Source: Escherichia coli
GTDB lineage: Bacteria > Pseudomonadota > Gammaproteobacteria > Enterobacterales > Enterobacteriaceae
NCBI RefSeq assembly: GCF_024502345.1
Contig: NZ_JALDNN010000001.1
Strand: one strand, 5' to 3'
Length of the DNA stretch: 64,000 nt
The position numbers were made by a program, and so were the translations under genes. Positions 1-60,797 of the stretch are shown here, piece after piece. How positions within the stretch are numbered: the stretch's first letter is position 1; every line of letters starts with the position of its first letter. The notes beneath the pieces are model-generated. The model was not told the DNA's origin. It made no database searches and saw only the letters and a list, made by a program, of their open reading frames with translations.

Positions 1-1144
1 GCACTACGTTCTCACTTGGGTAACAGCCCAATACCTTCATTGAACGGGTGATTTCCCCTAACTCTTTCAATGCTTTTTGCATTTCCGCTGATTCAAGATT
101 GGCCTGAATATCCAGATAAAACATCTCTTCCCATGGATTACCGTGAATCGGGCGTGATTCCAGACGGGTCATAATCAGATTGTGGTTGCGCAGTACCAGC
201 AACGCTTCAACCAGCGCACCGGCTTGTTGCCCGGTCGCCATTAACAACGTCGTTTTCGCCGGAACCTGATCAGACACGTTAATGGCTTTACGCGCCAACA
301 CCACAAATCGGGTGAAGTTTTGTCGCTGATTCGCTTCAATCCGCTCCAGTACCTGCAAACCGTACAAAGTGCCGCCAGCTTCGCTTCCCAACGCAGCAAC
401 ATGCGGTGATTTTGCCTGTGCAACCTTTTCCATTGCCGCAGACGTACTTTCGGTATATTCAATCTTCCAGTGCGGATAACGATTAAGGAATTTGCTGCAT
501 TGCTGGAATGGCTGCGGATGGCTGTAGACCGTATTGATGGTGGATAAATCAGTCGTGCCGGAGACTAACAAACAATGGTCGATAGTTAACGTCATCTCGC
601 CAACAATCGACAAGCTGGTATGTTGCAGCAGATCGTAAACGTCATTTATGGCACCGGAGCTGGTATTTTCAATCGGTACGACGGCATAGTCGGCCTGGCC
701 GGTTTCCACCTGATTAAAAATATCGGCAAATTTGGCGCAGCCACTTTCAATGAATTGCTCAAAGTGACGGGCAGCATACTGGCGCGCCGCAAGATGGGAA
801 TAAGAACCTTTGGGGCCGAGAAAAGCGATGCGTGCTGAGTGCGGATTAATTTTATTGAGATGTTGTTGGAGCAAAGCCTGCTGAGTTAATACGGAATCTT
901 CAATGATGAGCTGGAACAGGCGAGTAATGTAATGGGCGTCCAGATGGTGCGCTTTACCGAGCGTAATTAATCTTTCCAGTAAATCGCGTTCACGATCAAT
1001 ATCACGTACCGGGCGATGCGAGAGCAGTTTGGCTTTTCCCACCTCGACGGCCAGTTCGCGCCGCTCTGCGAGTAATGCTAATAATTTTTCATCCAGCGCG
1101 CTGATTTTCTCTCGCAGCGCCAGTAACGGGTTTTCCGATGTCAT
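1..1144 (-). CDS. pheA: Chorismate mutase / prephenate dehydratase (P-protein); 3' end runs off the window start
   Basis: Minus-strand translation from ATG at 1144..1142 reads [39 protein letters not shown]..., recognised as PheA; sits directly downstream of pheL and its attenuator. No stop codon inside window. Confidence 0.9.
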
Positions 1145-1163
1145 AGTGTTGCCTTTTTGTTAT

Positions 1164-1197
1164 CAATAAAAAAGGCCCCCCGATTTGGGAGGCCTTA
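1164..1197 (-). terminator. pheA attenuator (Rho-independent terminator between pheL and pheA)
   Basis: GC-rich hairpin GGCCTCCCAAATCGGGGGGCC followed by TTTTTTATTGA on the minus strand, between the leader peptide stop and the pheA start. Confidence 0.75.
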
Positions 1198-1242
1198 TTG
1201 TTCGTCTTCGCATTCTGTTTCACACGACGAAACGCCTCCCAT

Positions 1243-1290
1243 TCAGGGGAAGGTAAAAAAGAATGCGAAGAAAAACGGTGTGTGTTTCAT
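1243..1290 (-). CDS. pheL: Phenylalanine operon leader peptide (15 aa, 7 Phe codons)
   Basis: Minus strand ATG AAA CAC ACA CCG TTT TTC TTC GCA TTC TTT TTT ACC TTC CCC TGA = [15 protein letters not shown]; too short for the ORF track; position immediately upstream of the attenuator hairpin. Confidence 0.85.
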   Translation of the reverse strand: [15 protein letters not shown]

Positions 1291-1343
1291 GTTTGTTTCC
1301 TTAAGTGACTTTAGTACAGTACCCGTACTGTTTTCACGCTGTC

Positions 1344-1371
1344 AACAAAAAACGCGCCCGAAGGCGCGTTG
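1344..1371 (-). terminator. Putative Rho-independent terminator of raiA
   Basis: Hairpin AACGCGCCTTCGGGCGCGTT followed by a T-run on the minus strand, 23 bp downstream of the raiA stop. Confidence 0.6.
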
Positions 1372-1393
1372 GCGATACACTCAATATAAAGGA

Positions 1394-9272: not shown

Positions 9273-9357
9273 CCTTAAAGAAGCGTACTTTGTAGTGCTC
9301 ACACAGATTGTCTGATAGAAAGTGAAAAGCAAGGCGTCTTGCGAAGCAGACTGATAC

Positions 9358-9433
9358 GTCCCCTTCGTCTAGAGGCCCAGGACACCGCCCTTTCACGGCG
9401 GTAACAGGGGTTCGAATCCCCTAGGGGACGCCA
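9358..9433 (+). tRNA. gltW: tRNA-Glu (UUC) in the 16S–23S spacer
   Basis: GTCCCCTTCGTCTAGAGGCCCAGGACACCGCCCTTTCACGGCGGTAACAGGGGTTCGAATCCCCTAGGGGACGCCA; 76 nt with encoded CCA; anticodon loop CTTTCAC. Confidence 0.95.
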
Positions 9434-9626
9434 CTTGCTGGTTTGTGAGTGAAAGTCACCTGCCTTGATATCTCAAAACTCATCTTCGGGTGATGTTTGA
9501 GATATTTGCTCTTTAAAAATCTGGATCAAGCTGAAAATTGAAACACTGAACAACGAAAGTTGTTCGTGAGTCTCTCAAATTTTCGCAACACGATGATGAA
9601 TCGAAAGAAACATCTTCGGGTTGTGA

Positions 9627-59722: not shown

Positions 59723-59731
59723 CGGCAGTGT
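59723..59731. repeat. 9-bp target-site duplication (left copy) of the IS insertion
   Basis: CGGCAGTGT immediately left of the IS left inverted repeat; identical copy at 60789..60797. Confidence 0.9.
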
Positions 59732-60788
59732 GGCTTTGTTGAATAAATCGAACTTTTGCTGAGTTGAAGGATCAGATCACGTATCTTCCCGACAACGCAG
59801 ACCGTTCCGTGGCAAAGCAAAAGTTCAAAATCACCAACTGGCCCACCTACAATAAAGCCCTCATCAACCGTGGCTCCATAACTTTCTGGCTGGATGATGA
59901 AGCTATTCAGGCCTGGTATGAGTCAGCAACACCTTCTTCACGAGGCAGACCTCAGCGCTATTCTGACCTTGCCATCACGACTGTGCTGGTCATTAAACGC
60001 GTATTCAGGCTGACCCTGCGCGCTGCGCAGGGCTTTATTGATTCCATTTTTTCTCTGATGAACGTTCCGCTACGCTGCCCGGATTACAGCTGTGTCAGCA
60101 GGCGGGCAAAGTCGGTTAATGTCAGTTTCAAAACGCCCACCCGGGGTGAAATCGCACACCTGGTAATTGATTCCACCGGGCTGAAGGTCTTCGGTGAAGG
60201 CGAGTGGAAAGTCAAAAAGCATGGCCAGGAACGCCGCCGTATCTGGCGTAAGCTGCATCTCGCCGTTGACAGTAAAACACATGAAATCATCTGCGCTGAC
60301 CTGTCGCTGAACAACGTTACGGACTCAGAGGCCTTCCCCGGGTTAATCCGGCAAACCCACCGGAAAATCAGGTCAGCCGCCGCCGATGGCGCTTACGATA
60401 CCCGGCTATGTCACGATGAACTGCGGCGTAAGAAAATCAGCGCGCTTATCCCTCCCCGAAAAGGTGCGGGTTACTGGCCCGGTGAATATGCAGACCGTAA
60501 CCGTGCAGTGGCTAATCAGCGAATGACCGGGAGTAATGCGCGGTGGAAATGGACAACAGATTACAACCGTCGCTCGATAGCGGAAACGGCGATGTACCGG
60601 GTAAAACAGCTGTTCGGGGGTTCACTGACACTGCGTGACTACGATGGTCAGGTTGCAGAGGCTATGGCCCTGGTACGAGCGCTGAACAAAATGACGAAAG
60701 CAGGTATGCCTGAAAGCGTGCGTATTGCCTGAAAACACAACCCGCTACGGGGGAGACTTACCCGAAATCTGATTTATTCAACAAAGCC
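59732..60788 (+). mobile_element. IS903-family insertion sequence (IS5 family, IS903 group), 1057 bp, complete
   Basis: 18-bp perfect terminal inverted repeats GGCTTTGTTGAATAAATC (59732..59749 and, inverted, 60771..60788); 1057 bp; 9-bp flanking direct repeats; single 307-aa DDE transposase ORF. Matches the canonical IS903 description (1057 bp, 18-bp IRs, 9-bp duplication). Confidence 0.92.
59809..60732 (+). CDS. IS903-family DDE transposase
   Basis: GTG at 59809 gives 307 aa (M)AKQKFKITNWPTYNKALINRGSITFWLDDEAIQAWYESATPSSRGRPQRYSDLAITTVL... with acidic residues in LVIDSTG, AADGAYD and RSIAETAMYRVKQ; the track ORF from 59764 is an N-terminal over-extension. Confidence 0.9.
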   Translation: MAKQKFKITNWPTYNKALINRGSITFWLDDEAIQAWYESATPSSRGRPQRYSDLAITTVLVIKRVFRLTLRAAQGFIDSIFSLMNVPLRCPDYSCVSRRAKSVNVSFKTPTRGEIAHLVIDSTGLKVFGEGEWKVKKHGQERRRIWRKLHLAVDSKTHEIICADLSLNNVTDSEAFPGLIRQTHRKIRSAAADGAYDTRLCHDELRRKKISALIPPRKGAGYWPGEYADRNRAVANQRMTGSNARWKWTTDYNRRSIAETAMYRVKQLFGGSLTLRDYDGQVAEAMALVRALNKMTKAGMPESVRIA

Positions 60789-60797
60789 CGGCAGTGT
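60789..60797. repeat. 9-bp target-site duplication (right copy) of the IS insertion
   Basis: CGGCAGTGT immediately right of the IS right inverted repeat. Confidence 0.9.

Follow-up and report, generated by a model that had tools for sequence, protein, structure and literature searches.

The pheL-pheA leader region on the minus strand of the window, that is, of the whole 64,000-nucleotide stretch of Escherichia coli DNA analysed here (RefSeq assembly GCF_024502345.1, contig NZ_JALDNN010000001.1), is best read as a canonical ribosome-mediated attenuator that is intact and that carries the common Thr allele at codon 4 of its leader peptide, an allele which appears to be effectively neutral; we assign this reading a probability of roughly 0.93. 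Along the minus strand, the stop codon and terminator of raiA are followed in order by the two promoter hexamers, a Shine-Dalgarno sequence, pheL, a hairpin with its T-run, and pheA, and the individual features are the following.

1370..1351, minus strand: raiA terminator (from the sequence and a terminator scan)
1345..1340, minus strand: -35 hexamer TTGACA (read directly; same in K-12)
1321..1316, minus strand: -10 hexamer TACTGT, separated from the -35 hexamer by an 18-nt spacer (same in K-12)
1302..1298, minus strand: Shine-Dalgarno sequence AAGGA, 7 nt before the pheL ATG (read directly)
1290..1243, minus strand: pheL leader-peptide ORF, 15 sense codons including 7 Phe codons (translation)
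1281..1279, minus strand: pheL codon 4, ACA (Thr), with the variable base at 1280; K-12 has ATA (Ile)
1275..1267, 1263..1255 and 1251..1249, minus strand: pheL Phe codons
1276..1200, minus strand: segment 1:2 structure, formed between the Phe-codon region and RNA further downstream, with an inner pause hairpin CCUUCC...GGGAGG (folds and Rfam consensus)
1240..1234, minus strand: core of segment 2, GGGAGGC, able to form the antiterminator by pairing with GCCUCCC at 1193..1187 (masked folds)
1196..1172, minus strand: 3:4 terminator hairpin, AAGGCCUCCC-AAAUC-GGGGGGCCUU (terminator scan and folds)
1173..1166, minus strand: U-run, the end of attenuated transcripts (sequence, Rfam and terminator scan)
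1..1144, minus strand: pheA (chorismate mutase/prephenate dehydratase), ATG at 1144..1142, leaving the window at its left end

The initial annotation had described a 15-codon leader with seven Phe codons on the minus strand together with an attenuator hairpin, and both are present: translation of 1290..1243 returns the leader, whose 3' end reads TTC CCC TGA, and the hairpin is intact, its undisrupted stem of 10 pairs (7 of them G-C) running directly into the T-run. The Rfam family Phe_leader (RF01859), which has a gathering score of 55 bits, matches 1291..1166 with 132.2 bits (E = 9.4e-25) and over model positions 1-125 of 125. The pheA start codon at 1144 lies on the same strand, 22 nt past the end of this match, and residues 1-97 of the encoded PheA are identical to those of K-12 PheA, in agreement with the annotation of collinear genomes. 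The RefSeq annotation of the collinear strain HCP4S3_I4 likewise places pheL at identical coordinates (1243..1290).

Both hexamers that had been assigned upstream of the leader on the minus strand are where they were said to be and are identical to those of K-12. A simple scan for the sigma-70 consensus did not call the pheL-pheA promoter, because TACTGT agrees with TATAAT at only three of six positions. From identity to the K-12 sequence, and from the older literature, we nevertheless take TTGACA-18-TACTGT to be the likely pheL-pheA promoter. A perfect 7-bp inverted repeat, ACAGTAC-GG-GTACTGT (1331..1316, minus strand), overlaps the -10 hexamer, which forms its 3' part, and is identical in K-12.

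Comparison with the K-12 MG1655 locus, whose pheL begins ATGAAACACATACCG and has ATA (Ile) as its fourth codon, showed that the initial annotation had given the K-12 leader correctly and that the reference indeed has Ile rather than Thr at this position. Across 855 collinear bases the window differs from K-12 MG1655 at five sites, four of which are synonymous positions of pheA (1076, 1070, 1064 and 980). The regulatory region proper (1145..1393) differs at the single base 1280, which is C here and T in K-12, so that the codon 4 difference, which as proposed lies outside the Phe run, comes down to one C/T transition. No difference from K-12 is seen in the promoter hexamers, the Shine-Dalgarno sequence, the Phe codons, the U-run or any of the helices.

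The frequency of the two alleles in the species was determined by allele-specific megablast, using as queries two 55-mers centred on base 1280; each finds only its own allele because every possible 28-base megablast seed covers that base. ACA (Thr4) was found in 4,020 of 5,426 complete E. coli genomes (about 74%) and ATA (Ile4) in 1,398 of the 5,426 (about 26%); together they account for 5,418 of the 5,425 genomes having the region, which fits mutual exclusivity. Thr4 is therefore the majority allele of the species and the Ile4 of K-12 a minority variant. ACA is carried by O157:H7 and by C43(DE3), a derivative of BL21, among others, and ATA by derivatives of K-12 as well as by many natural isolates. 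The two forms also differ in name and accession: all ACA matches listed are named 'pheA operon leader peptide PheL', the Thr4 form being WP_001386991.1 in the RefSeq annotation of the collinear genome, whereas all ATA matches listed are named 'phe operon leader peptide', the Ile4 form being WP_010723158.1 at the K-12 locus. In an evenly spaced sample from an allele-unselective search, the K-12-type name stands in 8 of 30 rows, and about 40% of the genomes sampled match the window across 261 bases at 100% identity. The suggestion that codon 4 is a strain polymorphism thus holds in one respect, in that it is a real polymorphism relative to K-12, but not in the other, as Thr4 is shared by most E. 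coli genomes and is not peculiar to this strain. The idea that the C at 1280 reflects a mistake in sequencing or assembly and no real allele can be given next to no credence: nothing points that way beyond the single-base difference from the reference strain, whereas the same ACA 55-mer recurs in 4,020 complete genomes independent of one another and RefSeq holds a dedicated protein accession for the Thr4 peptide.

Outgroups were taken from a scan with a degenerate pattern, using one genome per species, which returned at least 120 loci. Among the matches listed, Thr is found at codon 4 in E. albertii (ACT), in Escherichia sp. E1V33 (ACG) and in Escherichia sp. MOD1-EC7003 (ACA), in which the leader equals that of the window except for one loop base. 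Thr also occurs at this codon in Huaxiibacter, in some Enterobacter and in some Citrobacter. ACA (Thr) is thus probably ancestral in E. coli, and the ATA of K-12 probably derived from it by one C-to-T transition, a polarity that draws on three Escherichia outgroups, representatives of E. coli, E. fergusonii, Shigella and Salmonella not being among the matches listed.

The RNA of the region behaves in folding models as expected of an attenuator. The 126-nt leader RNA has a predicted energy of -51.7 kcal/mol (z = -6.76), none of 200 shuffles folding as well, and its minimum-energy fold is the terminated form, with 1:2 and 3:4 formed together as in the Rfam consensus. The advancing ribosome was simulated by barring pairing up to 12 nt beyond the A-site codon. 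Placing the A site at Phe codon 7 or 10 turns the best fold into the antiterminator, in which both arms of the terminator are sequestered by pairing of UGGGAGGC (core 1240..1234) with GCCUCCCA (core 1193..1187) and of UCCCCUGA with UCGGGGGG; once the A site has moved to codon 12, codon 14 or the stop codon, the footprint covers segment 2 and the terminator forms again. Folding the leader, a check proposed at the outset, recovered both the terminator and the antiterminator pairings, which exchange with the simulated position of the ribosome, and these predicted folds match the classical terminator/antiterminator model as summarised in PMC3082878. Base 1280 corresponds to position 12 of the Rfam model, in an unpaired 5' stretch, and no predicted helix includes codon 4; the ACA and AUA versions have the same minimum-energy structure and the same energy (-52.9 kcal/mol), their ensemble energies being 0.2 kcal/mol apart.

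On this basis, and following the literature for its early steps, transcription would start downstream of TTGACA-18-TACTGT, and RNA polymerase would pause at the 1:2 hairpin until translation of pheL begins. With charged tRNA-Phe in ample supply, the ribosome would reach the UGA codon and cover segment 2, allowing the 3:4 terminator to form and transcription to stop at the U-run before pheA. When it is scarce, the ribosome would stall in the Phe run, leaving segment 2 (GGGAGGC) to pair with segment 3 (GCCUCCC), and pheA would be transcribed. In K-12, pheA transcription is known to respond to charged tRNA-Phe in vivo (earlier work, summarised in PMC3082878), and identity to K-12 suggests that pheA of the window would respond in the same way.

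Conservation was assessed in an alignment of 108 distinct Enterobacterales leaders, the window and K-12 included. The search pattern left codons 3-5 free, allowed TTY at Phe codons 6-8 and 10-12, and did not contain codons 13-15 or the downstream RNA. Three Bacteroidales and Lentimicrobium candidates (L010, L109 and L110), which run past 40 translated codons, were rejected as leaders, and the incomplete L034 was also left out. Codons 3-5 are the variable part of the peptide, whereas codons 13-15 (T-F-P) and the downstream RNA are nearly invariant although they lay outside the pattern. At codon 4, 13 different residues occur among the 108 leaders (Leu in 31, Val in 22, Thr in 19, Ile, Asp and Gln in 7 each, and others), and its columns, with 1.5-2.0 bits of entropy each, are among the most variable positions. 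Phe codon 6 alternates between TTT and TTC (56 vs 52), pairing being kept as U-G or C-G; the third positions of the other Phe codons are nearly frozen, with one exception among the 108 at codon 11 and constancy at the rest. These frozen synonymous sites indicate a likely constraint from RNA structure on top of the coding constraint.

The helices themselves are maintained across the same alignment. The terminated structure is 96.3% paired over the 108 sequences, against 44-59% in controls with slid partners. The 1:2 helix is 97% paired, with a compensatory A-U/U-A change in 18 sequences, and the 3:4 terminator 98%, with a compensatory A-U/G-C change in 48; the terminator and the outer part of the 1:2 helix also emerge independently from RNAalifold. 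The antiterminator core GGGAGGC:GCCUCCC can pair in all 108 leaders and, because it is invariant, covariation speaks neither for nor against this pairing. In six leaders from Erwinia, Pluralibacter and Enterobacter (L021, L039, L048, L086, L095 and L118), 9 nt are duplicated in frame, so that the peptide reads ...FFFTFFTFP or ...FFFSFFTFP (18 codons, 8 Phe), and others, from four Kosakonia/Enterobacter and one Proteobacteria MAG, end in ...TFPN; both kinds are natural length variants of pheL.

The SNP at 1280 alters, as far as the models go, no regulatory element and no predicted structure, and the exchange of ACA for ATA would be effectively neutral because codon 4 takes part in no pairing and is not a sensing codon. 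A functional difference between Thr4 and Ile4, whereby lineages would differ in their basal set-point of attenuation through slower decoding of AUA or through an effect of the fourth residue of the nascent peptide, is in our estimate quite improbable. Were it true, the attenuator of the K-12 reference would be unrepresentative of the species. The codon AUA is rare in E. coli, being read by the scarce tRNA-Ile2, and ACA is not rare, which provides one route to such an effect, and both alleles stand at appreciable frequency (74% and 26%). Codon 4 is, however, one of the leader's least constrained positions, with its 13 residues among 108 sequences, and it is unpaired in every predicted structure, the fold being the same for both alleles. 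The polymerase pause is moreover thought to synchronise transcription with the ribosome (PMC3082878) and would buffer small differences in early elongation. The second proposed route is an effect of residue 4 on termination or +1 frameshifting at UUC_CCC_UGA, a shift-prone stop at which 15% frameshifting occurs in K-12 and has been judged incidental (PMC3082878). Changing the Pro codon 5, at position -10 from the shift site, to a non-proline codon halves this frameshifting, so that distal residues of the nascent peptide can matter, but the frameshifting is without influence on pheA expression (PMC3082878). We retain the intact, effectively neutral Thr4 attenuator as the preferred reading. In the window, the +1 frame is open through the attenuator and continues within pheA as far as a TGA (1091..1089) that starts 53 nt beyond the first base of the pheA start codon; the distance given for E. 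coli is 80 nt (PMC3082878), and the basis of counting may differ between the two figures.

The window as a whole is collinear with K-12, running from pheA through raiA, bamD, rluD, yfiH, clpB, rrnG, rpoE-rseABC, rnc and glmY to yphC, with 98.2-98.9% identity over the window. None of the complete E. coli genomes compared is identical to the window: the best match reaches 99.2% over 1-25000, 108 records stand at 99% or more, and the differences are scattered. Two structural differences from K-12 were observed. The 16S-23S spacer upstream of tRNA-Glu, in the equivalent of rrnG (about 9337..9358), lacks about 87 bp relative to K-12 rrnG, with the alignment break running from 9337 to 9358 in the window and from 9338 to 9445 in K-12. 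In addition, an insertion sequence of 1,057 bp (59732..60788), absent from K-12, interrupts yphF, which encodes a sugar ABC-transporter binding protein. Its ends are 33-nt imperfect terminal inverted repeats starting GGCTTTGTTGAATAAATCG, it is flanked by a 9-bp target-site duplication, CGGCAGTGT (59723-59731 and 60789-60797), and its single ORF (59764..60732) encodes a DDE transposase (PF13737, PF01609). In size, ends and duplication the element presumably resembles IS903/IS102.

The attenuator of the window is thus a textbook one, already annotated, and what the comparison corrects is the perspective: at pheL codon 4, it is the K-12 reference that has the minority and probably derived allele. 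With its frozen synonymous Phe sites and the compensatory changes in two of its helices, it can serve as a worked example of such a system. The leaders trpL, hisL, thrL, leuL and ilvL share the same logic, namely a short ORF rich in codons for the regulating amino acid and mutually exclusive terminator and antiterminator hairpins, but differ in their sensing codons and downstream operons and form separate Rfam families, for which there was no match here. Among the closest relatives is the Thr4 PheL carried by most E. coli (WP_001386991.1), from which no difference was detected in the leader region of the window. K-12 pheL-pheA (RF01859; WP_010723158.1) has the same promoter hexamers, Shine-Dalgarno sequence, 15-codon leader with 7 Phe codons, 1:2, 2:3 and 3:4 structures, U-run and pheA start, whereas its codon 4 is ATA (Ile) where the window has ACA (Thr). 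More widely, the window is a typical member of the CCC_UGA group of enterobacterial pheL leaders (Gurvich et al. 2011, PMC3082878), a group characterised by the UUC_CCC_UGA end, conserved Phe codons and variable N-terminal codons, just as in the 108 leaders aligned here.
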